DNA of 33,966 nucleotides from Planctomycetota bacterium (GCA_016209535.1 JACQVW010000030.1:1-33966), one strand, 5' to 3'; positions 1 through 17,294 are shown, counted from the stretch's first letter. Translations and numbers: made by a program. The notes: generated by a model from the sequence alone, not told the origin.

Positions 1-569
1 ACCGAGTCGAGGAACCTCGGGAAGTCCTCCCGCGCGCCCTCGTCCGCCCGGAATGCGAGGTCGAGGAGCAGGGCCCGGTCGATGCGGTCGCGGTTGTCCT
101 TGAAGGCCTTGATGAAGTCCGCCACGTCCTGGTGCTTGTCGCCAGGTCGGCGCCACGGCGACACCGCCGCGAGGTACTTGAGGGCCAGGAGGACCTCCAC
201 GGTGGCCACCTTGACGCCTCCCGCGACCACCTTGCGGTCGAGGGCGACCCCGAAGAGCTCGTGGCTCTGGCTCTTGATCACGTCCGCCTCGAGCCGCATG
301 GGATCCGGCGAGAGCGTGCCGTGGAAGTTGACCACCGTCCCCTCGGGGGGACCGAGGGGGGAGGATTCTGTCTCCCGGAGGTCCGGGCAGGCCGCCTTGA
401 GGACCCTCTTCGCCTTGCGGAGGTCCTTCTCCCGCACCACCACGTCCACGTCCAGGGTGGCGCGCGGCCGCTTCAAGTAGTGGTTGACGGCCGCGGCGCC
501 CACGAGGACCCAGTCCACGCCCGCCGCCTCGAGCCCCGCGAAGAACTGCCTCGCCTTGTCAGGTAGCAT
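1..569 (-). CDS. minimal nucleotidyltransferase-fold protein. Partial: the C-terminus runs off the window start. An alternative upstream ATG at 707 is in frame.
   Basis: The minus-strand frame is open from 707 to the window edge with high GC3. Translation reads ...MLPDKARQFFAGLEAAGVDWVLVGAAAVNHYLKRPRATLDVDVVVREKDLRKAKRVL... The 'hhhhGG.Ah..YG..R.T.DhDhhh' pattern is typical of minimal NTases such as AbiEii or type IV TA-like NTases. A GGAAGAAAGG SD lies ~10 nt before the ATG at 569. The track does not list this ORF because it has no stop inside the window. Confidence 0.5.
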   Translation of the reverse strand, partial: MLPDKARQFFAGLEAAGVDWVLVGAAAVNHYLKRPRATLDVDVVVREKDLRKAKRVLKAACPDLRETESSPLGPPEGTVVNFHGTLSPDPMRLEADVIKSQSHELFGVALDRKVVAGGVKVATVEVLLALKYLAAVSPWRRPGDKHQDVADFIKAFKDNRDRIDRALLLDLAFRADEGAREDFPRFLDS

Positions 570-797
570 GCCGGCTTTCACCTTTCTTCCCCCCGCGCGG
601 ATGGCGTGCTGGACCTCGAGGGAGACGAGGCCCGCCTCCACGCCAAAGGGGAGAGGCTGGGAGCACCGGAACGGCCTGCGGCGGAGCATGGCAGTGGCTC
701 CGAGCATAGCACCCTTTTTCCGTTCCTCAAGGTAGCGCGGCACGCCGCGGCCCCGAACAACCTCCGACCGCCGGCGCGGCCCCGGCCAAGAAACCGC

Positions 798-827
798 TTG
801 CCGCTCGTCGGCCGCAGGCGGGATAAT
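798..827 (+). promoter_or_regulatory. candidate sigma70-like promoter, TTGCCG-N18-GATAAT, for the pup-like/pafA-like pair
   Basis: It sits in the divergent intergenic region 708-925. The GATAAT at 822-827 is a rare AT hexamer in ~70% GC DNA. Prediction is by eye only. Confidence 0.25.
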
Positions 828-925
828 GAGGACCTCCGAAGGGAAGGACGCAGCGGCCGCGAGACCGCGAAGAGAATGGGGCGCCGCCCGAGGGACGGGC
901 GGGCCCAGGAACGAAGGAACCGCTC

Positions 926-3219: not shown

Positions 3220-4572
3220 ATGGGAATGGGAAGGTCGGCGGCGTTCCTGCTGGGGCTCTTGGCGGGCTTGGAAGGCGTCGCGGCGGATGTCTACAGGCAG
3301 GAGGTCCTCAAGGACCGCCCGGTCGCGTACTGGCGGCTCGGGGAGGACGATCTCTTGGACGATGTCCGGAACGAGATGGGAGACGCCCTCAACGGGGAGT
3401 TCAAGCCCAACGAGAGAACAGGGCTCCAGCCCGGGTTCCCCGGCGCCATCGCCGGCGACGATGACACGGCGGTCCGGTTCCAGACGATCCCGGGCTTCGC
3501 GTGCCACGACTGCGGGCAGATCCAGGTGCCCCGGGACGGAGCCCTCGACCTCGGCCTGGCGGAGACCGACGCGACGATCACCCTCGAGGCGTGGTTCAAG
3601 CTGCTCCCGGACTCCTGCGACACTCTCCCCCGGCCGACCGCCTTCCCGCGCATCTTCCACTACAACAACGCCGCGCTCGGCCAGTACGCATTCGGCGTCG
3701 TGGGCGACGACAGCGCCGGTTATCCGGACCGGCGTTCGGTCTGGGCCGCGGCGGGGGACGGCGACGGCATCGGCGGCGTGATCAAGGCGGCCCCCACCGA
3801 CACGCTGCGGCCGAACGGCGCCGAAGAGTGGCGTCACTTCGTCGCGACCATCGTGGGAGGCGACATCCGCCTCTTCCTCGACGGGGAGGAGATCACGGAC
3901 GTCGAGGACTCGGACCCGATCTACTGGCAGTTCCCCCAGGCCACGATCGGCGGCAGGATCCAGAGCGACGGCATCAGCTTCGTGCAGGGCTTCCCGGGCC
4001 TCATCGACGAGCTGGCGGTCTACGACCACGTCCTGTCGATAGAGCGGATCCAGGCGCACCACGCCACGGGCGGGCAGCCCACCGCGAGGCCCCTGGCGAC
4101 GCCGTCGCAAGGCGACGCGCCCCTGACCGTGGACTTCGACGGAACCGGCTCGACGACGGCGCCGGGGACGACCATCGTGGGCTACGAGTGGTCCTTCGGC
4201 GACGGGGGGTCAGCCACGGGCTCCAAGGCGACGCACACCTACACGGCCCCAGGCAGGCACGTGGCGACCCTCACGGTCAATAACGACCGGGGTGGAGCCT
4301 CGGGGGCGACGATCGACCTCGGACTGCGCTTCCCCGAGGGAGACGTGGCGCCCTGGGCCGCGGCCGACATCGGGATGCCCGACATGCCAGGCGGCTCGCG
4401 CCTCGACGGCGACCGGTGCCTGGCGCTCCTCGCGGGGTCGAGGGGCCCCGACGCCGCATGGCCCGACGGCTGCCGTTTCGTCTACCAGGAGCGCGCCGGG
4501 AGCTTCGGCGTCACCGCAAGGGTCTCGACGCTGGCGCTGGATCCGGAAGGCTCTCCGGCGCCGCGGCCGTGA
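3220..4572 (+). CDS. secreted LamG-like/PKD/ConA-like jelly-roll protein, N-terminal 450 codons. This is a fragment of a frameshifted gene that continues in another frame to 5225.
   Basis: GGGGAGGAAG SD, then ATG. Signal peptide is MGMGRSAAFLLGLLAGLEGVAA. A LamG-type motif (…GFPGLIDELAVYDHVLSIERIQAHH) is followed by a PKD domain (LTVDFDGTGS…YEWSFGDGGSATG…HTYTAPGRHVATLTVNNDRGG). Then comes the first half of a DUF1349-like ConA-like domain (W..ADIG.P..PG...DGD...L.AGS.G.D.W...D...FVYQERAGSFGVTARVSTL), which stops abruptly at 4572. Confidence 0.8.
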   Translation: MGMGRSAAFLLGLLAGLEGVAADVYRQEVLKDRPVAYWRLGEDDLLDDVRNEMGDALNGEFKPNERTGLQPGFPGAIAGDDDTAVRFQTIPGFACHDCGQIQVPRDGALDLGLAETDATITLEAWFKLLPDSCDTLPRPTAFPRIFHYNNAALGQYAFGVVGDDSAGYPDRRSVWAAAGDGDGIGGVIKAAPTDTLRPNGAEEWRHFVATIVGGDIRLFLDGEEITDVEDSDPIYWQFPQATIGGRIQSDGISFVQGFPGLIDELAVYDHVLSIERIQAHHATGGQPTARPLATPSQGDAPLTVDFDGTGSTTAPGTTIVGYEWSFGDGGSATGSKATHTYTAPGRHVATLTVNNDRGGASGATIDLGLRFPEGDVAPWAAADIGMPDMPGGSRLDGDRCLALLAGSRGPDAAWPDGCRFVYQERAGSFGVTARVSTLALDPEGSPAPRP

Positions 4573-5225
4573 TGGTGCGCTCGAGCTTGGACCCAGGGAG
4601 CGCCCTCGCCGCCGTGGGCTTCGTGAGGTGGCGCGAGGCGACCCAGATCAAGCTCGTGGGCCGGACCAGCGACGGAGCGGGGCTGGTCGTCGACGCGCCG
4701 GTGGCGCTGGACATGGTCTCGCCGGATGCCTTCCTGCGCCTCGAGCGCAAGGGCCGGGACATCGTGGCGTCCGTGTCGGCGGACGGCGTCGCCTTCGTCC
4801 AGGCAGGCCGCGTCGCGCTGTGCGCGCCGCCGGATTCCCTGCTCGCCGGCGTGGCCGTCGCGCCCGCCCGCGCCAGGTGTCTTGGGGACGCGGCGGCGAC
4901 GTTCTGCGATCTGGCCTGGACCGAGCTCGGGCCGCTGCCAGCGCAGCCCTTCCACCGCGGCGACGCCGACGCGAACGGTCTCCTCGAGCTCACCGACGCG
5001 GTCTTCGTCCTGGAGTACTTGTTCCTCGGCAGGTGCGCCTCGCCGTGCCTCGACGCCGCCGACGCCGACGACTCCGGCCGCCTCGACATCACCGACGCCG
5101 TGCGCATCCTCGGGTTCCTCTTCCTCGGCGCCGCCCCGCCCCCGCCCCCCGGCCCGCCCGGGGAAGACTGCGGCCCCGACCCGGGCAGCGTGCACCTGGG
5201 GTGCGAGGCGTACGGAGGGTGCTGA
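4569..5225 (+). CDS. C-terminal fragment of the same frameshifted gene: the second half of the ConA-like jelly roll plus the dockerin-like/tri-Cys C-terminal module. Its open frame reaches upstream to 4416.
   Basis: Frame +2 reads ...AAAVMVRSSLDPGSALAAVGFVRWREATQIKLVGRTSDGAGLVVDAP…DGVAFVQAG. This is the continuation of the 'ITARV…AKAGLMIRESLDP' jelly-roll consensus. It is followed by GDADANGLLELTDAVFVLEYLFLG…DADDSGRLDITDAVRILGFLFLG and the PPPPPGPPGEDCGPDPGSVHLGCEAYGGC tail. Confidence 0.75.
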   Translation: MMVRSSLDPGSALAAVGFVRWREATQIKLVGRTSDGAGLVVDAPVALDMVSPDAFLRLERKGRDIVASVSADGVAFVQAGRVALCAPPDSLLAGVAVAPARARCLGDAAATFCDLAWTELGPLPAQPFHRGDADANGLLELTDAVFVLEYLFLGRCASPCLDAADADDSGRLDITDAVRILGFLFLGAAPPPPPGPPGEDCGPDPGSVHLGCEAYGGC

Positions 5226-5249
5226 CGAGCCAGCGAGCAGAGCAAGCGA

Positions 5250-5444
5250 GGCGTGGTTCAAGAACCGCGATTACGTGGTTCAGAACCACGCCTGTACTCT
5301 TCCCCCTCAAGGAATGTGCTCCCTCCCGCCTTGGTCGGGAGCACCCCCAAGGGGAAGACGGAACATGCTCATTGCTGGAGAGTTACGGCGAAGACCAGCA
5401 TGGCGTGGGTAAACAACGGGTGTTACCCGGTCTTGAACCACGCC
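5250..5444. repeat. structured intergenic block with two 43-nt elements sharing 7-bp termini GGCGTGG…CCACGCC (5250-5292 and 5402-5444) and a central 8-bp-stem hairpin (5316-5344). Candidate ncRNA or repeat element.
   Basis: Read directly from the sequence. Both elements are exactly 43 nt, carry identical inverted termini and end in …TTCAGAACCACGCC and …TCTTGAACCACGCC. They also contain internal GGTTC-N-GAACC palindromes. GC is locally lower than the surroundings. Confidence 0.4.
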
Positions 5445-5569
5445 GCAAGCGAGAGCACACGGCCCTCGGCGCACGGCGGCGCGGCAAGCCCGGCCGCTGG
5501 ACGTTGCGGCGTCCTCGGCGCGTCCGTAGCATGGGGGAGCAAGGCACCAGGCTCGTCGAGGGCTCTCTC

Positions 5570-5776
5570 ATGGCGCAAGTGACCTCCCATCCACTGGACA
5601 GCGATCCGGGCCCGCGCTTCGACCGCTGCGTCGATCGCGCGCACGCCCTCTTGCGAAAGGCGGCCGACCAGTGGGGGCTCGGGGATCCCGAGCAGCCACC
5701 GACCGGAGACGTCCTCGAGGCGATCCTCCGGGTCTTCGAGAAGGAGCGGTTCCTGCGTCGGGGCCGTCGGGCCTGA
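5570..5776 (+). CDS. small hypothetical protein, 68 aa (alternative start 5531), possibly translationally coupled to the downstream TPR gene
   Basis: GC3 is about 85%. The stop at 5774-5776 is immediately followed by GGGAG-N7-ATG of the next gene. Product is MAQVTSHPLDSDPGPRFDRCVDRAHALLRKAADQWGLGDPEQPPTGDVLEAILRVFEKERFLRRGRRA. Confidence 0.45.
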   Translation: MAQVTSHPLDSDPGPRFDRCVDRAHALLRKAADQWGLGDPEQPPTGDVLEAILRVFEKERFLRRGRRA

Positions 5777-5791
5777 GGCGGGAGTCAACCC

Positions 5792-7747
5792 ATGGTCTCG
5801 ATCCGCGTCGCCTGCGTCTTGGGCCTCGCCGCGGCGCAAGCGCCATGGAGCCCGGCGCTCGGCGACGACCGCGCCCTCGAGTTGAAGCTCCTCCTCGCCG
5901 ACGCCGGCCTCGCCTACCGCGGCGGCTCCTACGCCCGCGGGGAGGCCCTCGCCGAGTCAGCCTTGAAGGCCCTGCGCGAGGCGGGGCGAGGCTCGAGCCC
6001 GGAGGCGGCGGAGGCGCTCCACGTCCTCGCGGCCGTCGACAGGCGTCTCGGCCGCCACGAGCAGGCCGAGAAGCGCTGCCAGGAGGCCCTGGCGCTCCGC
6101 GAGAAGTCGCTGGGGGCGGAGCACCCCGACGTCGCGGCCTCGATCGAGCTCCTCGCCTCGATCCGCGAGGACCAGGGAAAGCTCTGCCCCATGGGCATCG
6201 CCCGCCGAGCTCTCGAGATCCGCGAGAAGACCTCGGCCGATCACCCCACCGAGCTTGTGCCGGCCCTCCTCCTCGTCGCTCGCCACGAGCTCGCGTGCAG
6301 CGGGCGCCGCGGGGCCGAGAAGGCCCGCGAGCTCGTCGAGCGCGCCCTCGCGATCCAGAGCGAGGCGAAGGGGGCCGACGGGATCTCCTTCGAAGGGTTC
6401 CACGCGCTCGGCGAGCCCGAGCTCGGCGAGGAGCTCCTCCGCGAGATGGAGGAAGCCGCGACGCTAGCCCTCGAGGTCCTGCGCGAGGCCGCGGGCCCCG
6501 CGCACCCCGGCCGGGGGTTCACCATGGCGCGGCTCGCGATGCTCAAGGGCGTGCGCGGGCGACTCCGCGAGGCTCGCGAGCTTTTCCAGGAATCCATTCG
6601 CCTGCACGCGAGCGGCCTCTCCGACGATGATCTCTGCCGCGCACACGACTTCGCGATCTCCCACTGGGAGGGCATCCGCGAGGAGGGGAAGCGGCTCGAG
6701 ACGGCCCACATGGAGCTGTGCCTCGTCGAGATGGCTCGCCGCGGCGGCAAGGCCATCGAGGACTGCCTGGCGCGCGCCGCGGGCGAACGGCTCGAAGTCC
6801 TGACGGCCCTCCGGCGGGCCCAGGGGAAGCGCGATCCCCTCGAGGTCGTCGTGAAGGGCCCTCTGGACCGCGAGTGCGAGCTGGGCGAGCTGCCCGCCTT
6901 CGAGGTCGCGCTCACGAACGTCGACGATGATAAGCGAGCCTTCGAGTTCACCAGGGGTGGCGACTACCGGAGCGGGCGCCTCGAGCGGTGGCGCTTCGAC
7001 GTCGTCGACGTCGCGGAAAACCCGCTGCCGCCTCTGCCGAGTCCCGACTCGGTCCACGGTGGCTTGATGGGTTTCGGGCGCCTCGAGCCTGGCGAGTCCT
7101 GGGAGACGACGCTGGAGATGTCCAAGTACGTCGACATCGCCTCCCCCGGCGAGCACACCGTTCGCATCCAGTATCACGACCACCTCGAGATCGCGGACCA
7201 GACGCTTGTCGACGACCTCATCTTGTCGTCCTCGAAGCCCCTGCGGCTCGTCGTCAAGCCCCGCGCTGTCGAGGCGACTCGCGCCGAGCTCGACGAGGCC
7301 GCGGCGCAGGTGGCGGGGCTGGATCCTCGGGAGCCCCTGAAGGTCATCGCCGGCCATTACGGGCCCTGGGCCCACGGTTTCATCGCCCCCGACTCGCCTC
7401 AGGGGAAGCTCCTCGCCCTCGGCTGGAAGGCGGTGCCGGCCCTCCTCGATGAGGTCGCGAAGGAGCAGATCGATCCGGCGCGACGGGCCTGGGCCCTCTC
7501 GCTCCTCTTCGCGATCACCGGCCGCAACGACCCGCGCCTCCGGCCCGGCGTCCTCGGTGCGCACTCCTGGCGCGAGGCGGGCTGGTCCCTCTTCGGCTCG
7601 AAGCGTGGCCGTGAGGTCGCGGGCGGCCTCGGCCTGGGCGGAGAGGGCACGGCCAGCGGCGGCGCGCCCGACCCCGCCGCGCAGCGGGAGCTGCTGGAAG
7701 CCTGGCGCGCGTGGAGGGCGCACCTCGCGGTCAAGGTCCGGCCGTAG
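5792..7747 (+). CDS. secreted TPR-repeat protein, 651 aa
   Basis: Signal peptide is MVSIRVACVLGLAAAQA. It has TPR_10/12-like repeats (…AEALHVLAAVDRRLGRHEQAEKRCQEALALREKSLGAEHPDVAASIELLASI…) and a long C-terminal region of unknown fold. Confidence 0.85.
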   Translation: MVSIRVACVLGLAAAQAPWSPALGDDRALELKLLLADAGLAYRGGSYARGEALAESALKALREAGRGSSPEAAEALHVLAAVDRRLGRHEQAEKRCQEALALREKSLGAEHPDVAASIELLASIREDQGKLCPMGIARRALEIREKTSADHPTELVPALLLVARHELACSGRRGAEKARELVERALAIQSEAKGADGISFEGFHALGEPELGEELLREMEEAATLALEVLREAAGPAHPGRGFTMARLAMLKGVRGRLREARELFQESIRLHASGLSDDDLCRAHDFAISHWEGIREEGKRLETAHMELCLVEMARRGGKAIEDCLARAAGERLEVLTALRRAQGKRDPLEVVVKGPLDRECELGELPAFEVALTNVDDDKRAFEFTRGGDYRSGRLERWRFDVVDVAENPLPPLPSPDSVHGGLMGFGRLEPGESWETTLEMSKYVDIASPGEHTVRIQYHDHLEIADQTLVDDLILSSSKPLRLVVKPRAVEATRAELDEAAAQVAGLDPREPLKVIAGHYGPWAHGFIAPDSPQGKLLALGWKAVPALLDEVAKEQIDPARRAWALSLLFAITGRNDPRLRPGVLGAHSWREAGWSLFGSKRGREVAGGLGLGGEGTASGGAPDPAAQRELLEAWRAWRAHLAVKVRP

Positions 7748-7753
7748 GCCGGA

Positions 7754-7798
7754 CTGGATTATGCCGTTGACACATAATGTCGGCGTTGCATAATCCAG
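7754..7798 (+). promoter_or_regulatory. AT-rich promoter TTGACA-N16-CATAAT (7767-7794) embedded in a perfect 10-bp inverted repeat CTGGATTATG…CATAATCCAG (7754-7763 and 7789-7798). This is a candidate operator.
   Basis: It has a near-consensus -35/-10 with 16-nt spacing. The -10 lies inside the right IR arm. A GAGGAG SD at 7803-7808 is followed by a TTG start at 7815. This is a striking AT island in GC-rich DNA. Confidence 0.5.
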
Positions 7799-7814
7799 GG
7801 AAGAGGAGCGCGAC

Positions 7815-9197
7815 TTGAGACTACCTTTCCTTGACCGCCGCCTCGAGCTGGAGGCTCTCCGGCGCGGGATCTCGGCACCGGGTGGAGGCCTTGTGGTCCT
7901 GTACGGCCGGAGGCGCTGCGGGAAGTCGAGGCTCTTGCTCGAGGCGCTCAAGGGGCACCCTACCGCCTACTATGTCGGGGATGAGCGAGAGGGCAGCACG
8001 CAGAGGCGAAGCCTCAGCCGCGCCATATCGAGCCTCATCCCGGGCTTCGACCGGGTGATGTACTCGGACTGGGAGGCGCTCCTCGACCGCTGGGCAAGGG
8101 AGGCCCCGGCGGACGCGATCCTGGCCTTGGACGAGTTCCAGTACATGGCTGCTTGCTCGCCCGAGCTCGCGAGCCTCCTCCAGAAACAGGTGGATGCGCC
8201 ACGGGAGAAGCCCTTCCGCGTGGTCCTCTGCGGCTCGTCGCAGCGCATGATGCACGGCCTTGTCCTCGACGCTTCGGCGCCTCTATACGGAAGGGCGCGG
8301 GAGATCATCAAAATCGGGCCCTTGGCCCCTGGCTGGATCCGTGATGCTTTCCCATCGTGGAGCACACAGCAGCTCCTCCATGCCTACGCCGCCTGGGGAG
8401 GTGTCCCCCGTTACTGGGAGCTCGCCGCGCAGTTCAAGTCCACCGGCGAGGCCCTTCACCGGATGCTTCTCGATCCTCTGGGCGTCCTCCGAGATGAGCC
8501 TTCGAGGCTGCTCCTGGACGACAAGAAAGAGATCGCCCAAGCGTCCTCGATCCTCAGCTTGATCGGTGAGGGCTGCCACAAGCTCTCCGAGATCGCAGGG
8601 AGGCTCGGGAGGCCGGCGACCTCGCTGTCGCGGCCCCTGGCCAGGCTCGCGGACCTAGGCCTCGTCAAGAGGGAAGTCCCCTTCGGGACCTCCGAGAAGG
8701 AGAGCAGGCGCTCCCTCTACAGGATCGCCGATCCCTTCCTCTCCTTCTGGTTCCGGTTCGTGGATCCCAAGCGTGCGTTGATCGAAGCGCGCCAGGAGGG
8801 AGCGCTCGATGAGGATCTCCGGCGCTTCTTCCCGTCGCATCTGGGCGAGGTCTGGGAAGAGCTTTCGCGGGCGAGCGTGTCCCGACTCACGATCGGAAGG
8901 ACGCGGTGGCGGCCGGCTGCACGCTGGTGGGGCCCCGGGCTCGACCGCCAGCCTCTCGAGTTGGACATCGTCGCGCTCTCCGAGGACGGGTCCCGCTACC
9001 TCGCCGGGGAAGCCAAGCTTCAGGTCAGGGCGAGGGAGTGGCCAACCGTTGTCTCGAAGCTCAAGTCGAGGATCGCGCGCTGTCCGGTCCTCGACGGAAA
9101 GCAGGTCGTATCCGCAATCTGGTGCGCGAGCGGGCGGGGCCGCCGGCGCGACGTCCCCACGGTGAGCGTGGCGGACGTGCTCGCGGCGCTGAAGTGA
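7815..9197 (+). CDS. AAA+ ATPase of the Arch_ATPase (PF01637) + DUF234 family
   Basis: TTG start. Walker A is LYGRRRCGKSRLL and Walker B-like is AILALDEFQ. The C-terminal region is DUF234-type (…YRIADPFLSFWFRFV…). It is a paralog of the gene at 22697-24145. Confidence 0.9.
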   Translation: MRLPFLDRRLELEALRRGISAPGGGLVVLYGRRRCGKSRLLLEALKGHPTAYYVGDEREGSTQRRSLSRAISSLIPGFDRVMYSDWEALLDRWAREAPADAILALDEFQYMAACSPELASLLQKQVDAPREKPFRVVLCGSSQRMMHGLVLDASAPLYGRAREIIKIGPLAPGWIRDAFPSWSTQQLLHAYAAWGGVPRYWELAAQFKSTGEALHRMLLDPLGVLRDEPSRLLLDDKKEIAQASSILSLIGEGCHKLSEIAGRLGRPATSLSRPLARLADLGLVKREVPFGTSEKESRRSLYRIADPFLSFWFRFVDPKRALIEARQEGALDEDLRRFFPSHLGEVWEELSRASVSRLTIGRTRWRPAARWWGPGLDRQPLELDIVALSEDGSRYLAGEAKLQVRAREWPTVVSKLKSRIARCPVLDGKQVVSAIWCASGRGRRRDVPTVSVADVLAALK

Positions 9198-9203
9198 TCG
9201 CCA

Positions 9204-9977
9204 CTACCCCGCGCACCCCGCCGCGCCCTCGCACGCCGCGAGCCCGTCCGGCGTCGGGTCCGCGCCGCATTCGCTCGGGCCGGGCGCGGGCGGCTCGGGG
9301 CCTCCCGTGAAGAGCCAGGCGAGGAGCGCGATGCCGTCCGACATGTCGATCGCGCCGTCATCGTTCGCGTCGGCGGCGTCGGGGCAAGTCGGCCCGCGGC
9401 CCGCGGCGAAGAGGAAGATGAAGACGCTCACGGCGTCCGAGATCTCGATCTCGCCGTCCTGGTTCGCGTCGCCGCGCCGGAGCTTCGCCGGCGGCTGGCT
9501 GCTCGGCACGAGTCGCACGTCGGCGCACGAGAAGTAGAGCCTCGGCGACGACGGGATCTCGGTCATGACCTGGATGAGCTGCAGCGTGCACGCGTCGCAA
9601 GGAGCGTCCGGCAGCTTGACCGTCGCCGTGTAGCGCACCGTGCCCTCGCCGGGCGGTGGCTTCTCGTCGGGGATGCCGTCGAGGAGGGGAAAGAAGCCCC
9701 GGTCGCCGCCCATCGAGAAGAGGAGGCGGTAGTAGCCGGGGTGGTCGACGTACTCGTCCCAGACCACCTCGAGGTCCTGGCCCGCCTCGAGGACCAAAGG
9801 CTCGTCCCCGCGAGGCAGCCCCCCGCAGGGCCCCGTCTTCGAGGTGAGGCTCGAGCGCGGGACAGGGAAGAGCAGCACCGCATGGGCCTCGAGGAGGGCC
9901 GGGGCGAGACCGAGGGCCAAGGCGAGGCCGAGGCCGAGGAGCGCGTGGGACGCGAGGGACGCTGGGGGCCGGCGCAT
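9204..9977 (-). CDS. secreted minimal AA10-like LPMO-like (histidine-brace candidate) protein with the dockerin-like/tri-Cys C-terminal module
   Basis: The signal peptide is …LGLAPALLEA|HAVLLFPVPRS, so His would be residue 1 after cleavage. H1-P7-R10 spacing matches AA10 'HGY..xPxSR'. GPCGG…DEP, LEVVWDEYVDHPGYYRLLFS and LYFSCADVRL resemble AA10 core motifs. The C-terminus is GDANQDGEIEISDAVSVFIFLF…DANDDGAIDMSDGIALLAWLF…SECGADPTPDGLAACEGAAGCAG. Confidence 0.75.
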   Translation of the reverse strand: MRRPPASLASHALLGLGLALALGLAPALLEAHAVLLFPVPRSSLTSKTGPCGGLPRGDEPLVLEAGQDLEVVWDEYVDHPGYYRLLFSMGGDRGFFPLLDGIPDEKPPPGEGTVRYTATVKLPDAPCDACTLQLIQVMTEIPSSPRLYFSCADVRLVPSSQPPAKLRRGDANQDGEIEISDAVSVFIFLFAAGRGPTCPDAADANDDGAIDMSDGIALLAWLFTGGPEPPAPGPSECGADPTPDGLAACEGAAGCAG

Positions 9978-9980
9978 GGG

Positions 9981-12900
9981 CTATCGACAGGCCGTCGGAC
10001 AGCCCTGGACCCTCACGCAGCTCGTGCCCCGCGAGGGCACGGGGCCGCCGCGGAAGAGGAAGTTGAGGAGGTAGACCGCGTCCGAGACGTTCACGCTCTC
10101 GTCGCCGTTCAGGTCCAGGATCGTCTTGTTGCCGCCGTCCGTCACCGACGTGCCCTCGCAAGGAAGAGGCTTCGATGCCCCGAGGAAGAGGCGCAAGAGG
10201 AGCGAGAGGCCGTCCGACACGTCCAGCACGCCGTCCTGGTTCGAGTCGCCGGGGAGCTGGAGGCCGCCCGAGTTGGGAGCGCCGTCGTCGGAGCCCGGCG
10301 AGCCGCCCTCGAAGTTGCTCGTGCGCCAGCTTTCCTTCAGACCCCAGCTCGAAAGCTCCGCGCCGGGGTCGACGATGGTCAAGGACATGCCGAGGCCGTC
10401 CGTCTCCGGGTACCAGAGGTCGTCGTAGGCGAAGGCGAGGATCGGCTCCTTGAAGGGGCCCTCGAGGACGATCTCCTCGCCGGCGTTCGAGAGGTTCCCG
10501 TCGTAGGCGCCGGCGACGAGGATCCCCGCTGTCCCGTAGAGGAGCTCGAAGGCGGCCGGGTCCTTCACGAGGACCACGTACCCGCCGGGGGCGAGCGCCG
10601 TCCCGGGCCCGAAGACGAACGAGACCGACCCGCTCAGGCGGAAGCCCTCGAGGTCCAGGGGCTGGGAGCCCACGTTCTGGAGCTCGATGAACTCGAAGTC
10701 CTGGGAGCCGTAGGTGCTGTCGGGCAGCGGGTTCACGGGGTGGTACATGATCTCGCTCACGACGAGGGGCGGCGTCGCGACGACGAACGTCGCGTCCGTG
10801 GGCCCGCTCCAGTTGCTCGTGCTGATCCGGGCCCTGGCGATGACGCGCGTGTTCTCGTCGAGGACGATGGCGCCCGAGTACTGGGCCGCCGTCGGTCCCA
10901 TCGCCCCCCCGGGAGCGCGCGGGTCCCTGCCGTCGAGGGTGTAGAAGATCGTGCCCGCGGGAGCGCTGATCGCGAGGTTGAACCCCGGCGCGATGGGCCC
11001 GCCGTTCCGGGTGAACGACGGGGCGACGGGGTAAAGCCCATCCCACCACACGAGGCGGTCCTGCACCCAGTCCGTCATGAAGTTGAGCTCGTCCTGGTAA
11101 GTCTGGCCGATGTACCAGTTCGGCCACACGCGGGTCCCGAGGGTCCGCCAGCGCTGGAAGTTCCTCTGCTGCGATTCGTCGAGGAGGACCGCGGCCTCAT
11201 CGATGTCGTTGAGGAGGATGCTCGTCTGGAAGGGCCCGCGGCGAAGCACGGTCCACCGGTCGCGGTACTTCTGGACGAACTCGGGGTCCTGGAAAAGGCG
11301 GCCGTACCAGGGATAGTCGCCCGCCGAGAGCTGCGGGTAGTAGAAGCCCGTGGCGATCCAGCCCTGGAGGTAGTCCGCGTTGCCCAGCGAGAGGTTGTAG
11401 TCCCAGATCGGGCCCATGTTGAGCTTGCCGCCGCGGTCCTTGTACATGAACGTGCTCAGGCGGAAGCCGTCGATGTTCTTCGTGACCTCCACCAGGATGT
11501 GGTGATCGATGAAGGAGTCGACGTCGATGTACTTCGCGTAGCCGTTCACGGGGTCCTTGAAGTTGGTCCCGTAGAGCACCGACTCGAACTCATCCAGGTA
11601 CGCCTTGATCCAGGCCCTCTGGGCCGGCGTGATGAATTCCTCCTTGGGGTCCACATAGCCGAGCCTGTGCCCCTGGCTCGTGGTCATGCCGCCGTCGCCG
11701 GGGTCGAGGCGGTCCTTCTTCAAGATGTAGCCGCCCGTGATGTCGGGCTCCGCCGAGTCCGAGGCATCCAGGTTCTTGATGTCGACCCGGTCGTCCCCTC
11801 GCTTGATCTTCTCCATGAAGACGTAGACGCCGATGTAGTCCCCCGAGTCGATGTTGCCGCCTCCCGAGTTCAGGTACATCTCGACGAACTTCGTGTGGGT
11901 GGCCCAGCGGCCGATCCGGTTCGACCAGGTGTAGGAGAGGTGGTTCCGCATGAGGGTCTTGTCGGAGTACGGCCCGTGGAGGATCCAGTCGGAGTCCTCG
12001 GGCATGCCGAGGAAGGAGACGTCCATGTCGCTCCCCAGCGCATCGCGGACCTCGAAGGCGTAGTTGTTCTTGGGAAAGCCCAGGGAGCTCGAGCCCCGCT
12101 TCTTGATCGCCGTGGTCCCCGTGAAGGTCGGGGTCCCGGTCATGGAGGTCCTCCCGGTCGCCCCGGGCTCGAGCATGGCCGAGAAGGAGCTCGTCCAGAC
12201 GGCGTCGTTGATGCCCTGACCGAAGGTCTCGACGACGAGGACCGGCAGGTTCGACGTGAAGGTGCGGACGTTGGTCGCGAGCATGAGGTACGACTGGACC
12301 ACGGTGGGGCTCGGCGCGAAGCCCGCCTCGAAGGCCTTCGCGCGGACCATGGTCGTGCCCGCGATCGAGATCGGCGCGGAGTAGAGCGTGGAAGCCTCGG
12401 TGGGCTCCGAGCCGTTCGTGGTGTAGCGGATCGCGGCGCCCGGCGTCGGCGAGGTGAGGGTCAAGCTGAAGCTCGCCGTGATCATGCCGCTCGATTTCGA
12501 GAACTGGGGGCGGGTCGAGACGCCCGGGTAGCCCGCCAGGTTGCCCAGGCGCGGCGTGGGCTTCGTGAAGAAGTGCCTCGTGCTCCGGTCCAGGGTGCCC
12601 GAGGCCGAGGCGTCGAGCTCGGGGAGGACGAGGAAGTCGGAGCTCGTGGCGTTCGCGTTGAGCCCGTGGACCGCGAGCACGTTCTGCCCGCTCCGGAGGC
12701 GCCCCACCTCGCTCGAGATGTTGACCTCCTCGAAGATCACGGCGAGCGCGTCGTCGTGCTGCGCCGTGGCCGCGGAGCTCCAGGCCGGGGCTGCGGGCGC
12801 GTTCCGCTCGGCGACCTTCGTGCCGTTCAGGTAGGCGATGTACCCGTCGTCGTACTTGGTGTGCAGGAAGAGCCCCGTGTACTGGGAGGGGTCCGTGACG

Positions 12901-13589
12901 CTGAAGGGGACCCGGAGGTACGCCGTGGTCGCCACACCGTCCATCTGCGACCGGACATCGAGCTCGATGAGGCTCGTGTAGTCGGGGTTCCGGTCGTAGC
13001 CGAGGCCCGTCGAGCCCGAGAGCCAGCCCGAGTCGGAGAACGAGACCTGCGTCCAGGTCGTCCCGAGGGACCCGTCCTGCGGCACCAGGGCCTTCGCCGC
13101 GGCGCCCGAGACGACGAGGTTCGTGAGGGTGGCCTCCTGCTTGAGGCCGTAGGACATGTCTTCGATCTGAGGCGGGTACGGCGCGTACTCGTAGACCACG
13201 GTGACCCCATCGGGCTTGACGAGAGCGAGGTACCCGCCCGCCGCGTCGAGCTTGAAGCCCGTGTGGAGCGTCCCCGCCGGGTCTCTGCGGTCCTTGCCCG
13301 AGGCGAAGACCACGATGAAGTTGTCGGCCGGCAGGCTGACCGACGGGAAGCGCCACTTCGTGGGGTTCGCCGCGTCGTCGGTGAGGCACCACCCGCTCAG
13401 GTTCGCGCTCGTCGTCCCGGCGTTGTAGACCTCGATCCAGTCCGAGTCGTCCCCGTCCTCGTCGGTGAGCACTGTCTCGTTCGCCGCCATCAGCTCGGTG
13501 ATCACGAGGTCCTGGGCTCGGGAGCCGGCCGAGAGCCCCAGGAGGAGGCAGAGGGACGCGGCGCCGGTGTGGTGCGTGCTGGACTTCAT
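9981..13589 (-). CDS. secreted CotH-family (atypical kinase-like) protein with N- and C-terminal lamin-tail domains, a chitobiase-C-like Fn3 domain and the dockerin-like/tri-Cys C-terminal module. 1202 aa. An alternative upstream start at 13649 is in frame.
   Basis: Signal peptide is MKSSTHHTGAASLCLLLGLSAGSRAQD. The LTD is ITELMAANE…DWIEVYN…LSGW.L. CotH core motifs are …YAFEVRDALG…WILHGPYSDKTLMRNHLSYTWSN…YIGVYVFMEKIKR…GGYILKKD…DHHILVEVTKNIDGFR…. A second LTD is VVSEIMYHP…FEFIELQN. The stop is 3 nt from the start of the 9204-9977 gene, so they form an operon. Confidence 0.9.
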   Translation of the reverse strand: MKSSTHHTGAASLCLLLGLSAGSRAQDLVITELMAANETVLTDEDGDDSDWIEVYNAGTTSANLSGWCLTDDAANPTKWRFPSVSLPADNFIVVFASGKDRRDPAGTLHTGFKLDAAGGYLALVKPDGVTVVYEYAPYPPQIEDMSYGLKQEATLTNLVVSGAAAKALVPQDGSLGTTWTQVSFSDSGWLSGSTGLGYDRNPDYTSLIELDVRSQMDGVATTAYLRVPFSVTDPSQYTGLFLHTKYDDGYIAYLNGTKVAERNAPAAPAWSSAATAQHDDALAVIFEEVNISSEVGRLRSGQNVLAVHGLNANATSSDFLVLPELDASASGTLDRSTRHFFTKPTPRLGNLAGYPGVSTRPQFSKSSGMITASFSLTLTSPTPGAAIRYTTNGSEPTEASTLYSAPISIAGTTMVRAKAFEAGFAPSPTVVQSYLMLATNVRTFTSNLPVLVVETFGQGINDAVWTSSFSAMLEPGATGRTSMTGTPTFTGTTAIKKRGSSSLGFPKNNYAFEVRDALGSDMDVSFLGMPEDSDWILHGPYSDKTLMRNHLSYTWSNRIGRWATHTKFVEMYLNSGGGNIDSGDYIGVYVFMEKIKRGDDRVDIKNLDASDSAEPDITGGYILKKDRLDPGDGGMTTSQGHRLGYVDPKEEFITPAQRAWIKAYLDEFESVLYGTNFKDPVNGYAKYIDVDSFIDHHILVEVTKNIDGFRLSTFMYKDRGGKLNMGPIWDYNLSLGNADYLQGWIATGFYYPQLSAGDYPWYGRLFQDPEFVQKYRDRWTVLRRGPFQTSILLNDIDEAAVLLDESQQRNFQRWRTLGTRVWPNWYIGQTYQDELNFMTDWVQDRLVWWDGLYPVAPSFTRNGGPIAPGFNLAISAPAGTIFYTLDGRDPRAPGGAMGPTAAQYSGAIVLDENTRVIARARISTSNWSGPTDATFVVATPPLVVSEIMYHPVNPLPDSTYGSQDFEFIELQNVGSQPLDLEGFRLSGSVSFVFGPGTALAPGGYVVLVKDPAAFELLYGTAGILVAGAYDGNLSNAGEEIVLEGPFKEPILAFAYDDLWYPETDGLGMSLTIVDPGAELSSWGLKESWRTSNFEGGSPGSDDGAPNSGGLQLPGDSNQDGVLDVSDGLSLLLRLFLGASKPLPCEGTSVTDGGNKTILDLNGDESVNVSDAVYLLNFLFRGGPVPSRGTSCVRVQGCPTACR

Positions 13590-14009
13590 GCGTAGGTAGT
13601 GCTCTTTTTGTGGTTCGCGGACAGACCCTGCGTCGATGGACGCACCCAATGGTAGCCGCTGGGTTTGCGGGAAGACAACTGGGTTTTCGAGGGGCGGCCG
13701 GCGCGAAGCTCATGGCCGAGTCCCCCCCCGGCGTCGCCGCAGCGAGGCCTACCGCCGTCCTTTGCTGTGACCTCGGCGAAACACGGCCACCGGCCCCCCC
13801 CTTGCGATCGGCGGGTCACAGGATACCGTGTGATGAAGGCCATGGATCCTACGCTCGTACTGATCCGCCCGGCGTCCGCCGGACGGAGTCGCCAGGGGAG
13901 TGAGCACCTTCGTGACGCTCCGCTCGACGGCGCCAGGGGCTGCCGCCAAGCTCCCGAGCGGCCGCAGCGTCAGGACGGTTGCCGGAGGCGTGCACTGGCG
14001 CGGCCCCCC

Positions 14010-15953
14010 TCACGGGTGCTCCTTCCCCTTCCGCAAGGGCTCGACGCGCCAGGCGGCCTCGGGGCCGAAGCGGAGCTTGCGGCCGGAGTGCCCCGCGTGC
14101 TTGTCGCCGTAGAGAGCGCGTACGGTCCAGGTCTGGAGCAGGACGGCGAGGACCGCCGCAGCGCAGCCGGCGCAGGCCGCGCGGGTGATGAGGCGCGCTG
14201 CGCCGCGGGGATCCGGCAGCACCGCGGGAGCCCCATCGCCGGGACGCGGCAGGGCGAGGACGAGCACGGTGACGAGCGCCGCGTTCACGGCGATGACCCC
14301 CTCCGTGAGGAGCCGCCCCTCGCCGAAGCCGGCGAGGGCCCGCTCGAAGTTCCCGGAGACCATCCACCAGAGAAAGAGCACGTAGAGGAGCTGGCCCCGC
14401 CCCAGGGCCGTCTCCGGCGCCACCGCGAGCCGCCGCCGCGAGTGGAGGACGAGGAGGAGCACCGCCGCGGCGGCGATGAGCCCGTAGACGAGGTGGAACC
14501 AGGCCGAAGCCGAGAGGTCCACGCTCGCGAAGAGCGGCGCCCGCATGCGCGCGGGAACGGCGCGGGCCTCGACCCACGTCTCCACGTTCTTCACGAGGTT
14601 CAGGTACGTCACGCCGAGGAGGACGAAGGCCACGGAGAAGCCCTCGTACCACCGTGGCCGCTCGGGCACGGCGCCGGTGAGGCGCGGGAGGCGGGTCGCG
14701 AGGATCGCGAGGGCCACGGCGATCCCGAGGCCGTTCACGAGGCCGTAGCTCTGCTCGAGGAAGCTGTGCCAGTTCGCCGACTGCCAGTGAGCCCAGGCGG
14801 CGACCTCCGCGGGGTCTGCGCCGCGGGCGGGATTGCCCGGAGCCACGAGGACGAGCTTGAGCCACGCCGCGCCCGAGAAGCCCAGCCCCCCGGCGGCGCC
14901 GCTCACGAGGGAGGCGAGGACCACGGGCGCGAAGCCGCTCCGCGCGAGCCAGAGGGTCGCTCCGCCGCAGACGCCGAGGATCCCCGCCCAGTCGTCGCCG
15001 CGGGGCGGCGTCATGCGGGCGCCGAGGAGGACGGGGAGGAGGAGGAAGCCCGCCCACCAGCCGAGCGCCATGTGGAGGAGGAGGGAGGAGCCCGCCCGGA
15101 AGCGTCCCCAGCGAAAGAAGTACGCACCCGCGCCGGCCGCGAGGCCCAGGGCCCAGCCGAGGTGCCGCGACGCGAGGGGCAGGAAGCCGGGCCAGTTCGT
15201 CAGCAGCTCGCCCCGCGCCCACATCGACGGGTCGCCCTCGAGGCGCACGAGCCAGCCCGCGACGGCCGCATCGAGGCCCGCGAGCTCCAGGAGCCACTGG
15301 AGCGCGAAGCCCGCGGCGGCCCCGGCGGCCGCGAGGAGCGCGAGGCGGTCGAGCCTCTCGAAGCGCCGGTCGGCGAGGTCGAAGAGGAGGAGGGCGGCGA
15401 CCGCCGAGAGGGCCGGGATCCAGTCCGCGTCGAACCAGTAGAGGAGGCTCTCGTGGCGCTGCGCGCCCACCGCGGCCCCCTCGAGGCCGCGCTCGACCGC
15501 GGGCAGCGCCAGGTCCACGGCGACCCACGCTCCGAGGACCCAGAGGAGCGGCCGGAAGAGCCCGCGCAGCCGCTCCTCATCCGCCGCGGCCGCGAACGCC
15601 GTGCCCGCCCCGCCGAGGGCCGCCCAGAGGAAACCGATCGCGAAGAGGCAGGCGAAGCCGTAGACCTGCGAGGGCAGGTGCCCCGAGTGGGTGTAGGCGA
15701 TGACCTGGCCGTAGGACATGGACCCGCCGAAGGCCCAGCCCAGCGCGCCGAGGAGGGCGAAGAAGGGCGCGCGGCGGCGCCAGTCCTCGCGCCCCGAGAA
15801 GAGGCACGCCGCGAGCGCCGCGAGCGCGCCGGGCACCATCGCGCCGTACTCGTGGCCGAAGTTGCCCCGGATGCCCCAGCCGATCGAGAGGCTGAGCGCG
15901 ACGGCGAGGAGGGCCGCCGGCCGGAGGAGCGCGGTGGATGGTGGCTTGTCCAT
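14010..15953 (-). CDS. Trp-rich polytopic integral membrane protein of unknown family, ~648 aa with >12 predicted TM segments. An alternative GTG start is at 15971.
   Basis: Hydrophobic segments recur throughout (LLAVALSLSIGWGI, FFALLGALGWAFGG, LLWVLGAWVAVDLAL …). The frame has a coherent, strongly hydrophobic amino-acid composition, unlike the overlapping shadow frames. Confidence 0.75.
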   Translation of the reverse strand: MDKPPSTALLRPAALLAVALSLSIGWGIRGNFGHEYGAMVPGALAALAACLFSGREDWRRRAPFFALLGALGWAFGGSMSYGQVIAYTHSGHLPSQVYGFACLFAIGFLWAALGGAGTAFAAAADEERLRGLFRPLLWVLGAWVAVDLALPAVERGLEGAAVGAQRHESLLYWFDADWIPALSAVAALLLFDLADRRFERLDRLALLAAAGAAAGFALQWLLELAGLDAAVAGWLVRLEGDPSMWARGELLTNWPGFLPLASRHLGWALGLAAGAGAYFFRWGRFRAGSSLLLHMALGWWAGFLLLPVLLGARMTPPRGDDWAGILGVCGGATLWLARSGFAPVVLASLVSGAAGGLGFSGAAWLKLVLVAPGNPARGADPAEVAAWAHWQSANWHSFLEQSYGLVNGLGIAVALAILATRLPRLTGAVPERPRWYEGFSVAFVLLGVTYLNLVKNVETWVEARAVPARMRAPLFASVDLSASAWFHLVYGLIAAAAVLLLVLHSRRRLAVAPETALGRGQLLYVLFLWWMVSGNFERALAGFGEGRLLTEGVIAVNAALVTVLVLALPRPGDGAPAVLPDPRGAARLITRAACAGCAAAVLAVLLQTWTVRALYGDKHAGHSGRKLRFGPEAAWRVEPLRKGKEHP

Positions 15954-16055
15954 GTGCCCGGGTTCGGGCACAGTGTACGCAAGACGGCGAGCCGTGAGAA
16001 TCCTCCACGACGAGAACCTGCCTTACATCGCCGCGCTGGAGCCGGGGGATCGGCC

Positions 16056-17294
16056 GTGAGAGGTGCCACGCCGCCGCGAGCGCTCCTCCTGGCCCTGGCC
16101 CTCGGCACGCCCTTCGCTGCCCGTGCCACCGAGGAGTCCTGGTCCTGCCAGGTCTCGCCGCCCGAGCGCGAAGTCGTGACCGAGCCCGAGAGCGGCGCGC
16201 GGACCGTATTCGTCACCACGAGCGCCGCGGACGACTCGAACCTGTACTTCCACGACCGCTCGTGGATCGCCGACGGATCGCTGCTCGTCTTCTACTCGGA
16301 CCGTGCGGGCCGGCGCGACTTGTTCGGCTACGTCGAGGCGACGGGCGAGATCGTCCGCATCGGACCGCCCGACGACCCCGGCGGCGCGCCGCTCGACGCC
16401 GTGACCTGCTCCCGGCGCGGCAGCATCGTGTACGCCATCCGCGGCCGTGACGTCCTCGCCTTGACCGTGGACCTCGCCGTCCAGACCAGCTCCCCGACGC
16501 GCGCAAGCGTGCGGGCGAGGCAGGTCTGCGCCGTCCCGAAGAACGGCGGGCTGCGCTCGGCGCTGAACGAGAGCTCGGACGGCCGGCTTCTGGCCCTCGG
16601 CCTGACCGACCCCGACAGGCCTGGGACGAACCGGATCGCCGCGATCGAGGTCGAGACGGGCAAGGTCTCGACGGTGACCGAGGTCCAGTTCCCGGTATCG
16701 CACGTCCAGTTCTCCTGGACTCGTCCCGACCTCGTGCTGTTCGCGCGCACCTACCCCGAGGGGGACCGAGTGCCCGAGCGCGCCGAGCCGGGCTCCGAGC
16801 CGCACGCGAGGCTCTGGCTCGCCGACCTCTCGGGGAAGCCCGCCTGGCCCGTCTTCTGGCAGAAGCCCGGAGAGCTCGTCACGCACGAGTGCTGGTGGAC
16901 CGAGGACCGCTTCACCTTCTGCGGCGGCCACAGGCCGCACGAGTCGCACCTCAAGGTCTACGACCTGAAGAGCGGGCGGATCTCCATCCTCGGCGCGGGG
17001 AGCTGGAGGCCCGAGGCCAGCGCGGAGGAGATCACGAAGCGCGCCTGGTGGCACGCGTCGGGGTCGCCCGACGGCCGCTGGGCCGCCGCCGACACCTTCC
17101 ACGGCGACGTCGTGCTCTTCGACGCCGCGACGGCCGAAGAGCGGCCCCTCTCGCGCGGCCACCGCGTCTTCGGCTCGAACGGCGCGCACCCGCACGTCGG
17201 CTGGGCGCCGTCGTCGGACCGCGTGGTCTACGCCTCGAACGTGCGCGGCAACCCCGACGTGGTCGTCACCGGGGTGCCGGCGGGGTGGAGGTGA
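16056..17294 (+). CDS. secreted beta-propeller protein resembling oligogalacturonate lyase (PL22-like)
   Basis: GTG start. Signal peptide is VRGATPPRALLLALALGTPFAARA. LYFHDRSWIADGSLLVFYSDRAGRRDLFGYVEATGEIVRI and a C-terminal HPHVGWAPSSDRVVYASNVRGNPDVVV resemble Ogl 'YF..K.F..DGS.LLF' and 'HPHPSF.PD.K…'. Confidence 0.7.
   Translation: MRGATPPRALLLALALGTPFAARATEESWSCQVSPPEREVVTEPESGARTVFVTTSAADDSNLYFHDRSWIADGSLLVFYSDRAGRRDLFGYVEATGEIVRIGPPDDPGGAPLDAVTCSRRGSIVYAIRGRDVLALTVDLAVQTSSPTRASVRARQVCAVPKNGGLRSALNESSDGRLLALGLTDPDRPGTNRIAAIEVETGKVSTVTEVQFPVSHVQFSWTRPDLVLFARTYPEGDRVPERAEPGSEPHARLWLADLSGKPAWPVFWQKPGELVTHECWWTEDRFTFCGGHRPHESHLKVYDLKSGRISILGAGSWRPEASAEEITKRAWWHASGSPDGRWAAADTFHGDVVLFDAATAEERPLSRGHRVFGSNGAHPHVGWAPSSDRVVYASNVRGNPDVVVTGVPAGWR

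Follow-up and report, generated by a model that had tools for sequence, protein, structure and literature searches.

A dockerin-like module with a cysteine-bearing tail on secreted proteins of a Planctomycetota contig

What is the module of about 95 residues, made of two calcium-binding repeats and a proline-rich, cysteine-bearing tail, that recurs at the ends of proteins encoded on one planctomycete contig, and what does it do there? The 33,966-bp stretch of DNA that we analysed, referred to below as the window, is a complete contig of the NCBI metagenome-assembled genome (MAG) 'Planctomycetes bacterium' (locus tags HY721_), with a GC content of about 70%. A preliminary description of this sequence had noticed the module on a LamG/PKD protein, on a protein that it named AA10-like, and on a CotH protein, and had proposed that it is either an assembly tag with a cohesin-like partner or a sorting signal. 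On balance, we consider it probable that the module is a dockerin used as an assembly tag and that a C-terminal clasp, stapled covalently, locks its fold.

Three copies of the module and their predicted fold

Six dockerin-type calcium-binding loops are present in the window, and a six-frame regular-expression scan confined them to three open reading frames (ORFs). The motif matched only at 4962-4997 and 5061-5096 on the plus strand and at 9435-9470, 9336-9371, and 10212-10247 on the minus strand; the sixth loop, DLNGDESVNVSD at 10080-10115 (minus strand), is slightly atypical and was located separately from the motif scan. The ligand positions 1, 3, 5, 9, and 12 are kept in all six loops (DADANGLLELTD, DADDSGRLDITD, DANQDGEIEISD, DANDDGAIDMSD, DSNQDGVLDVSD, and DLNGDESVNVSD).

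The two plus-strand loops belong to a module at 4956-5222, which forms the end of an ORF at 4587-5225; its cysteine codons are located at 5034 and 5046 in the linker and at 5169, 5202, and 5220 in the tail. The loops at 9435-9470 and 9336-9371 are part of a module at 9207-9485 (minus strand) that ends a protein resembling lytic polysaccharide monooxygenases (LPMOs), with cysteine codons at 9384 in the linker and at 9267, 9231, and 9213. Both copies have the same kind of tail, designated type 1 here. The module that ends the CotH protein (9984-10268, minus strand; loops at 10212-10247 and 10080-10115) is of a second kind, type 2, with a longer linker and with cysteine codons at 10158 in the linker and at 10017, 9999, and 9987. 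The three proteins end in ...CEAYGGC*, ...CEGAAGCAG*, and ...GCPTACR*, respectively; in each, the stop codon is reached 0-2 residues past the last cysteine, and neither a hydrophobic stretch nor a basic tail follows that cysteine in any of the three ORFs.

We built a hidden Markov model (HMM) of the module (117 positions) from 38 metagenomic homologues, none of them from the window, and ran it on the 331 six-frame ORFs of the window. The LPMO-like copy scored 137.5 bits over HMM positions 15-116 and the LamG-side copy 108.4 bits over positions 23-115, in both cases covering the whole module, while the CotH copy scored 40.6 bits over positions 31-92, the dockerin core only. No other match was found among these ORFs at E ≤ 10. 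The recurrence on three proteins reported in the preliminary description is therefore real: the six loops, linkers, proline-rich stretches, and cysteine tails read as quoted there, and the model of the ~95-residue module recovers these three copies and no others. The copies are about 43% identical to one another in pairwise protein comparisons and their DNA differs throughout, so they are not recent duplications.

A phmmer search of the PDB returned twelve matches at E ≤ 10, every one of them a dockerin or a dockerin-bearing amylase from Ruminococcus bromii; the best E-value was about 9e-4, and the clostridial dockerins in these alignments contain no cysteines. For the LPMO-like module (95 aa, 41-sequence alignment), AlphaFold2 gave a predicted local distance difference test (pLDDT) of 94.0 and a predicted template modelling score of 0.86, with helices at residues 17-28, 37-40, and 50-62. 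Order is also predicted for the tail (mean pLDDT of 92, 89, and 76 in blocks of ten residues), and a beta-bridge is predicted between residue 4, which is position -3 before the first loop, and tail residue 76. The CotH module was predicted with the same topology at a pLDDT of 84.3, with an N-terminal strand (residues 2-4) paired to a tail strand (85-87). In both models, a helix follows each calcium loop. Foldseek searches of the PDB returned only dockerins for either module; for the LPMO-like module the probability reached 1.00, with root-mean-square deviations of 1.5-2.0 Å over 58-67 of 95 columns, and the last ~30 residues had no counterpart in PDB structures. The retained ligands, the PDB matches, and the predicted folds thus bear out the earlier suggestion that the repeats are dockerin-like, and they support an interpretation of the repeats as duplicated dockerin-type calcium-binding loop-helix segments.

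The closest known relative is the type I dockerin, as in Cel48S of Clostridium (Acetivibrio) thermocellum (PDB 1DAQ/2MTE; PF00404). The module shares with it the duplicated loop-helix segment of about 22 residues with D1/N3/D5/D12, the three-helix fold found by Foldseek, the usual location at the C-terminus of secreted proteins, the many copies per genome, and the presence of cohesin homologues in the lineage. However, the window module is only 21-32% identical to type I dockerins and falls below the Pfam gathering score. Its near-invariant linker cysteine and its tail of about 30 residues with one to three cysteines are absent from solved dockerins, which cover about 60 of the 95 residues. 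The hosts also differ, Planctomycetota as opposed to anaerobic Firmicutes, and the proteins that carry the module are mostly not carbohydrate-active enzymes (CAZymes).

The cysteine tail and its two forms

A first homologue search returned 67 proteins 38-63% identical to the window module, whose alignment shows the pattern ...PPAPGPxCGxDPTxDxLxCxxxxxC. Conservation and cysteine content were determined in an HMM-based alignment of 519 non-identical full modules, which came from 217 proteins and 81 genomic loci; the frequencies that follow refer to this sample. The type-1 tail spans about 30 residues, with the consensus PPxP-x3-(C)GxDPTxDxLxC-x3-5-(C). Within the calcium loops, D12 is conserved in 100% of modules in both loops and D1 in 98-99%. 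Before the first loop, F(-3) is conserved in 92% and R(-1) in 99%, and in the tail the values are 97% for P94, 92% for G99, 95% for D101, 82% for T103, and 86% for D105. The linker cysteine (C60) is present in 98% of the modules and the cysteine of the 'LxC' motif (C109) in 100%.

The linker and LxC cysteines are the only ones in 273 modules (pattern C.C.), all four cysteines are present in 221 (CCCC), and the remaining 25 show other patterns. The cysteine before GxDPT and the terminal cysteine co-occur with an odds ratio of 1133 (Fisher p = 4e-125), a statistic that ignores the phylogenetic non-independence of the modules. This co-variation suggests two disulfides that would staple the tail to the dockerin core. 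On the simplest reading, a near-universal disulfide joins the linker and LxC cysteines, and a second, optional one would join the cysteine before GxDPT to the terminal cysteine. In the window, both type-1 copies have all four cysteines, and the LamG-side copy has an extra cysteine in its linker.

The preliminary description had treated a tail with three cysteines as the conserved unit. The larger sample does not agree with this: the conserved core is one tail cysteine plus the linker cysteine, to which an optional second pair is added. The same description had considered that the cysteines would be incidental if the tail were not conserved in relatives, or if the module were a generic dockerin found elsewhere without them. 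The tail is not incidental: it is conserved in hundreds of sampled relatives and predicted to be ordered.

We propose that two F-hand calcium-binding loop-helix segments form the core of the module and that the tail of ~30 residues would fold back onto it, where it would pair with the residues before the first loop (F-x-R-G-D) and be held by the disulfide between the linker and LxC cysteines. The second disulfide would close a loop of the tail in about 40% of the family, including the two type-1 copies of the window. The result would be a covalent version of the 'intramolecular clasp' of cellulosomal dockerins, suited to an oxidising extracellular setting; disulfides would be fitting in proteins that organisms of oxic waters export. 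Clasp contacts between positions -3 to -1 and the C-terminus stabilise both the calcium-bound dockerin and cohesin binding (Slutzki et al. 2013, PMC3821032). In the clasps of Ruminococcus flavefaciens ScaA and other dockerins (PMC3821032), the residues at -3 to -1 contact the C-terminal end, and the module resembles them in its conserved F(-3) and R(-1) and in the bridge or strand pair that AlphaFold2 predicts between N-terminus and tail. The known clasps are single non-covalent contacts, by stacking or a salt bridge, whereas the module would use a whole tail segment and one or, in some members, two disulfides.

The tail of the CotH module, TSCVRVQGCPTACR, differs from the other two of the window and does not align with them. 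Tails of this second type were found in five other sequences: P0221, loci L029 and L007, and the last modules of P0170 and P0171, both of which also carry two type-1 modules. P0221 is 62% identical to the CotH module and likewise follows an LTD-like ...SW..S...GSPG segment. Type-2 modules have [LIV]-P-G-D in place of F-x-R-G-D, an LPC linker with a longer insert, and a tail of the form G..CV.V..CP..C, with four invariant cysteines in the subtype alignment (A8). The joint loss of R(-1) and GxDPTxD in type 2 would fit a mutual contact of these elements in type 1. The single architecture claimed earlier for all three proteins thus holds for the dockerin core; the tails, however, fall into two subtypes, and that of the CotH protein is distinct. 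As a separate observation, some type-2 modules in A8 (L007, P0170, and P0171) have an extra cysteine in the first calcium loop ('DCN') and another in helix 1 ('xCLL'), which suggests a third disulfide in that sub-lineage.

Relatives, cohesins, and competing explanations

A search with the module profile against 1.84 billion cluster representatives gave 54,182 matches at E ≤ 1e-3, 28,969 at E ≤ 1e-10, and 2,023 at E ≤ 1e-30. In a scan of one genome per GTDB species, at least 346 stretches were confirmed, with several module matches per genome. A Planctomycet* label is attached to 67 of the best 80 loci; the remainder are mostly unclassified MAGs, so that nearly all matches with a label are MAGs of Planctomycetota. 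A few contigs with the module have labels from outside the planctomycetes, namely Bacillota (L021 and L069), Nanoarchaeota (L074), Omnitrophota (L049), and Proteobacteria (L080). Some of these likely reflect mis-binned or mislabelled MAGs, and an occurrence in Omnitrophota would fit reports of dockerin-rich proteins in that phylum of the PVC (Planctomycetes-Verrucomicrobia-Chlamydiae) group.

The 81 loci contain 143 ORFs with a full module. Genes for such ORFs are clustered, with up to five or six adjacent (L005, L034, L035, and L076); the CotH and LPMO-like genes of the window form a comparable pair. Arrays of three to six adjacent module-ending genes were seen in L005, L028, L034, L035, L055, and L076, and in L005, L028, and L034 the neighbours in the array are paralogous proteins with a cohesin-like domain and the module. 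The domains to which the module is attached include FG-GAP, PKD, LamG_3, di-haem oxidoreductase (DHOR), LPMO_10, the proprotein-convertase P domain, beta-helix, M23, trypsin, GSDH, and others.

The top-scoring cluster representatives contain two to seven full modules each, and in many of them modules alternate with segments of about 150 residues (module/~150 aa/module, in some followed by a further segment and module). Among the inter-module spacers of at least 100 aa, 146 of 183 fall into one homologous cluster. These spacers are of two sub-types, represented by alignments A3 and A4, which hhalign matched to one another with 97.2% probability (E = 3.5e-11). The A3 profile matched solved cohesins with E-values of 4e-7 (3L8Q), 2.5e-6 (3UL4), and about 2-3e-4 (1OHZ/1ANU/1AOH); the A4 profile matched the Clostridium acetobutylicum cohesin 6KG8 over its full length (E = 0.008). 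The Pfam Cohesin model scored 37.6 bits in P0084 and 31.6 bits in P0114 and was near threshold in others. A homologue search with the A3 profile gave one match among 4392 candidates. In the genomic sample, a cohesin-like domain and a C-terminal module are found together in 20 ORFs from 12 of the 81 loci; often these ORFs are neighbouring paralogues.

Signal peptides followed by alternating modules and cohesin-like domains were observed in P0143, P0079, P0139, P0075, about 100 other representatives, and loci L025 and L035. The architectures are dockerin-cohesin-dockerin (Doc-Coh-Doc) and Doc-CohA-Doc-CohB-Doc, with up to four modules and with the two cohesin sub-types in a fixed order; a Doc-Coh-Doc protein could polymerise head-to-tail.

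We suggest that the module would dock the CotH kinase-like, LPMO-like copper, and LamG/PKD lectin-like proteins in a calcium-dependent manner onto cohesin-like domains of scaffolds or adaptors whose genes would lie elsewhere in the genome; the CotH copy, being of the second subtype, may address a different cohesin. The assembly tag of the preliminary description, with a cohesin-like partner, is supported in relatives, in which the module alternates with cohesin homologues; in the window itself there is no such homologue, and the partner in this MAG would have to lie outside the contig.

Several points weigh against our reading. No cohesin-like ORF was found in the 34-kb window, even at E ≤ 10, although the preliminary description had suggested looking nearby for such a partner. 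A cohesin-like domain is present in only 20 of the 143 module-bearing ORFs of the sampled loci, and the Doc-Coh-Doc representatives were enriched by ranking on summed score, a bias that is smaller in the 81-locus sample. The cysteine statistics carry the phylogenetic limit stated above. The Pfam Dockerin_1 model (gathering score 22.9 bits) scored only 20.1 bits on the LPMO-like copy and 18.6 bits on the CotH copy and did not match the LamG-side copy at E ≤ 0.1. In relatives 44-62% identical to the window module the same model scored 25.6-96.6 bits, and it detected 18 of 80 module-bearing ORFs at E ≤ 1e-4; it is insensitive to the cysteine-tailed variant. Finally, the face that binds cohesin could be masked or changed by the stapled tail, and the literature that we found contains no experimental demonstration of a planctomycete cohesin-dockerin interaction.

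Some of these points would equally be expected if the module were a dockerin-fold calcium-binding domain that does not bind cohesin and serves instead in stabilisation or solubility, in binding an envelope or glycan ligand, or in self-association. We consider this explanation unlikely, though it is the strongest of the competitors. It would account for the window without a cohesin and for the lack of a cohesin-like domain in 123 of the 143 module ORFs of the loci sampled; the conserved GxDPTxD surface of the tail is absent from cohesin-binding dockerins, the attached domains are mostly not those of CAZymes, and many non-cellulosomal dockerin-like modules are without a known partner. However, cellulosomal enzymes likewise bear dockerins without cohesins, and the alternation of the module with cohesin homologues in single proteins, together with the adjacent arrays of cohesin-plus-module genes, is hard to explain without a cohesin-dockerin relationship.

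A C-terminal signal for sorting, secretion, or anchoring, recognised by a dedicated machinery and perhaps removed in the manner of the C-terminal domain of the type IX secretion system (T9SS CTD) or of PEP-CTERM/exosortase, appears quite improbable. Like these signals and MYXO-CTERM, the module is mainly C-terminal and is found on many unrelated, very diverse secreted proteins per genome: it is at the extreme C-terminus only, 0-7 residues before the stop codon, in 124 of the 143 ORFs. In nine ORFs, however, it is N-terminal only, directly after the signal peptide, in five it is at both ends, and in five elsewhere, and the representatives described above carry it in two to seven full tandem copies. 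The N-terminal, internal, and tandem copies, with the Doc-Coh-Doc proteins, favour an assembly tag over the sorting signal that the preliminary description had kept as an option. No conserved neighbour gene other than module genes, whether a sortase-like enzyme or a partner, was found in more than seven of the 81 loci; the neighbour clusters present in at least eight loci are the module-bearing proteins themselves or antisense shadows of module genes. PEP-CTERM, MYXO-CTERM, or LPXTG-type signatures are not present at the three protein ends of the window, which lack a hydrophobic stretch, a transmembrane helix, and a basic tail and gave no NCBIfam sorting-domain match at E ≤ 1. A T9SS CTD is equally unsupported, with no NCBIfam match of the TIGR04183 type and a compact helical dockerin predicted rather than a beta-sandwich; on PEP-CTERM, MYXO-CTERM, and the T9SS CTD the preliminary description had come to the same conclusion. 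A chance or compositional resemblance arising from D/G/P-rich coding sequence is excluded, since, for all the ~70% GC and the proline-rich stretches of the window, the three copies and nothing else there are matched by an HMM built without them, at 137.5, 108.4, and 40.6 bits, and the family comprises thousands of homologues with position-specific conservation.

A wider proposal is offered tentatively. The module may belong to a phylum-wide, cellulosome-independent assembly system of Planctomycetota. In it, dockerins locked by disulfides, in two or more orthogonal subtypes, would be matched by cohesin-like domains, and Doc-Coh-Doc(-Coh-Doc) proteins with signal peptides would polymerise head-to-tail into lattices or chains. 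Peptidases and lectins, as well as CotH kinases and LPMO-like copper proteins, would be displayed on these, and the covalent clasp would adapt the dockerin fold to oxic, low-calcium waters.

The fold and general role of the module are of a known kind, that of the dockerin, and dockerins outside cellulosomes had already been noted in Planctomycetes. For freshwater members of the group, the Nemodlikiaceae, Andrei et al. 2019 (PMC6461901) put forward a 'planctosome' of cohesins and dockerins with LTD proteins. As outlined there, it resembles the present case in its planctomycete cohesin/dockerin modules, its non-cellulolytic cargo, and its LTD proteins; the CotH protein of the window has two LTDs. 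It differs in that it rests on a few proteins, and in the passages considered no cysteine-stapled tail, pair of subtypes, or Doc-Coh-Doc array is described. The LTD of the planctosome is on the cohesin-bearing anchor, whereas that of the window is on the dockerin-bearing CotH protein, and the contig encodes no cohesin. Of the planctosome parts, dockerin-bearing proteins and LTD domains are present on the contig; a cohesin and peptidase cargo are not. CotH-dockerin proteins are known components of cellulosomes (PMC12484212), which share with the module its diverse cargo. In these, as in the window, a CotH kinase-like domain is fused to a dockerin in a secreted protein; the dockerin of the window differs in being a type-2, cysteine-tailed one placed after an LTD domain, in a host context that is not that of a cellulosome producer. 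The literature searched contains no description of the cysteine-stapled tail, the two subtypes, the family size, or the alternating Doc-Coh arrays.

The contig and the meaning of the module

One claim of the preliminary description does not stand as it was made, namely that the LamG/PKD protein itself ends in the module. The LamG_3/PKD ORF at 3220-4572 and the module at 4956-5222 are read in different frames, and NCBI annotates two proteins on the plus strand, MBI4600583.1 ('PKD domain-containing protein', 3220-4572; Pfam PKD_4 63.1 bits, Laminin_G_3 50.3 bits) and MBI4600584.1 (hypothetical, 4587-5225). The stop codon TGA at 4570-4572 shares one base with an ATG at 4572-4574; NCBI places the start of the module ORF at the TTG at 4587. 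At about 4510-4570, the periodicity of GC at third codon positions (GC3) changes over from the LamG/PKD frame to that of the module, and no intergenic gap intervenes. Judged by eye, the LamG_3/PKD ORF has a signal-peptide-like N-terminus, MGRSAAFLLGLLAGLEGVAA, and the module ORF has no signal peptide of its own. Because of this gapless frame switch and the missing signal peptide, we favour, without regarding it as proven, a 1-nt deletion in a single LamG-PKD-X-dockerin gene, be it real or an assembly error or pseudogene; this is probably the right reading, and two genes with a TGATG stop/start overlap are the less likely one.

Pfam found no domain bridging the junction in the conceptually repaired fusion protein, so a weak match of the module ORF to DUF1349 (E = 0.088) was discounted as evidence. 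A phmmer search of the PDB with the junction region gave a single match, to flagellin, which is spurious. When the LamG protein was compared by BLAST with the fetched loci, similarity was at the level of the PKD domain only and no orthologue was found. Candidates for stand-alone small module proteins were rejected; many are fragments at contig ends, and at least one, P0025 (locus L001, 3429-4367, on a JGI 3300002231 contig), overlaps the 3' end of an upstream gene of 1313 aa in another frame. This overlap, which is like the LamG case, could be a coincidence, could reflect a recurrent indel-prone GC-rich stretch before the module, or could be programmed.

The remaining genes were listed from ORFs with high GC3 and from Pfam scans. 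An AbiEii fragment (3-923, minus strand) is followed by a PafA2/Pup-ligase homologue (MBI4600582.1, 1168-3072, plus strand; Pfam Pup_ligase 281.7 bits), so that in this Planctomycetota MAG a member of the PafA2 family adjoins genes for secreted proteins. Downstream of the module ORF, a TPR protein (5792-7747) and an ATPase_2/DUF234 protein (7815-9197) are encoded on the plus strand. On the minus strand, the LPMO-like secreted protein (MBI4600588.1, HY721_01370, 9204-9977; exact NCBI match) is preceded by the CotH gene (MBI4600589.1, 9981-13589), an NCBI gene call for a secreted protein of the order LTD - CHB_HEX_C/Fn3_assoc - CotH - LTD (Pfam CotH 189.2 bits, LTD 89.7 bits). The protein earlier named AA10-like is more exactly an LPMO-like member of the SCE4755 family (NCBIfam NF043005, 97.4 bits against a cutoff of 75), and the Pfam BIM1-like copper-protein model stayed below threshold at 24.1 bits. 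The CotH stop codon is 3 nt upstream of the LPMO-like start, so the two genes are probably co-transcribed.

Further along the minus strand are a polytopic membrane protein of about 650 aa (14010-15971) and an ORF at 16023-17195, both without a Pfam match, a GH5 cellulase-family protein (17266-18411), and a beta-lactamase/amidohydrolase fusion (18434-21595); beyond 21595 the genes are unrelated housekeeping genes. The run at 9204-21595, from the fusion enzyme through GH5, the unmatched ORF, and the membrane protein to the CotH-LTD and LPMO-like genes, is on a single strand and may be an operon for an extracellular, polysaccharide-related function; within it, the module is present only on the CotH and LPMO-like genes. 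At 14001-16000, the plus strand has a strong AT skew of +0.33 at 75% GC, which coincides with and reflects the minus-strand gene for the polytopic membrane protein; no tandem repeats were found at 13.6-17.4 kb. There are three ATPase genes of the ATPase_2/AAA_16 type, at 7815-9197 (plus strand; with DUF234 and a winged-helix domain), 22697-24145 (minus strand), and 30341-31534 (minus strand), and together with the AbiEii toxin fragment they may represent defence or STAND-like content.

For annotation, the cysteine-stapled tail provides a simple signature that is largely missed by Pfam and NCBIfam, which recognise the core only, and poorly. Since Dockerin_1 detects so few of the module-bearing ORFs and the copies of the window either score below threshold or lack annotation, a model built for the module would give a new annotation to many secreted proteins now called 'hypothetical' and would point out candidate scaffolds. 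A naturally disulfide-locked dockerin would also be of interest for synthetic cellulosomes, whose designers have engineered disulfides into cohesin-dockerin pairs. If the module docks onto cohesin-like domains, the CotH kinase-like, LPMO-like copper, and lectin-like proteins of this contig would be linked to a common extracellular complex, and cohesin-dockerin assembly would not be confined to anaerobic degraders of cellulose. It would then be one of the main principles by which the planctomycete secretome is organised, represented by tens of thousands of sequence clusters and by dozens of genes in a genome.

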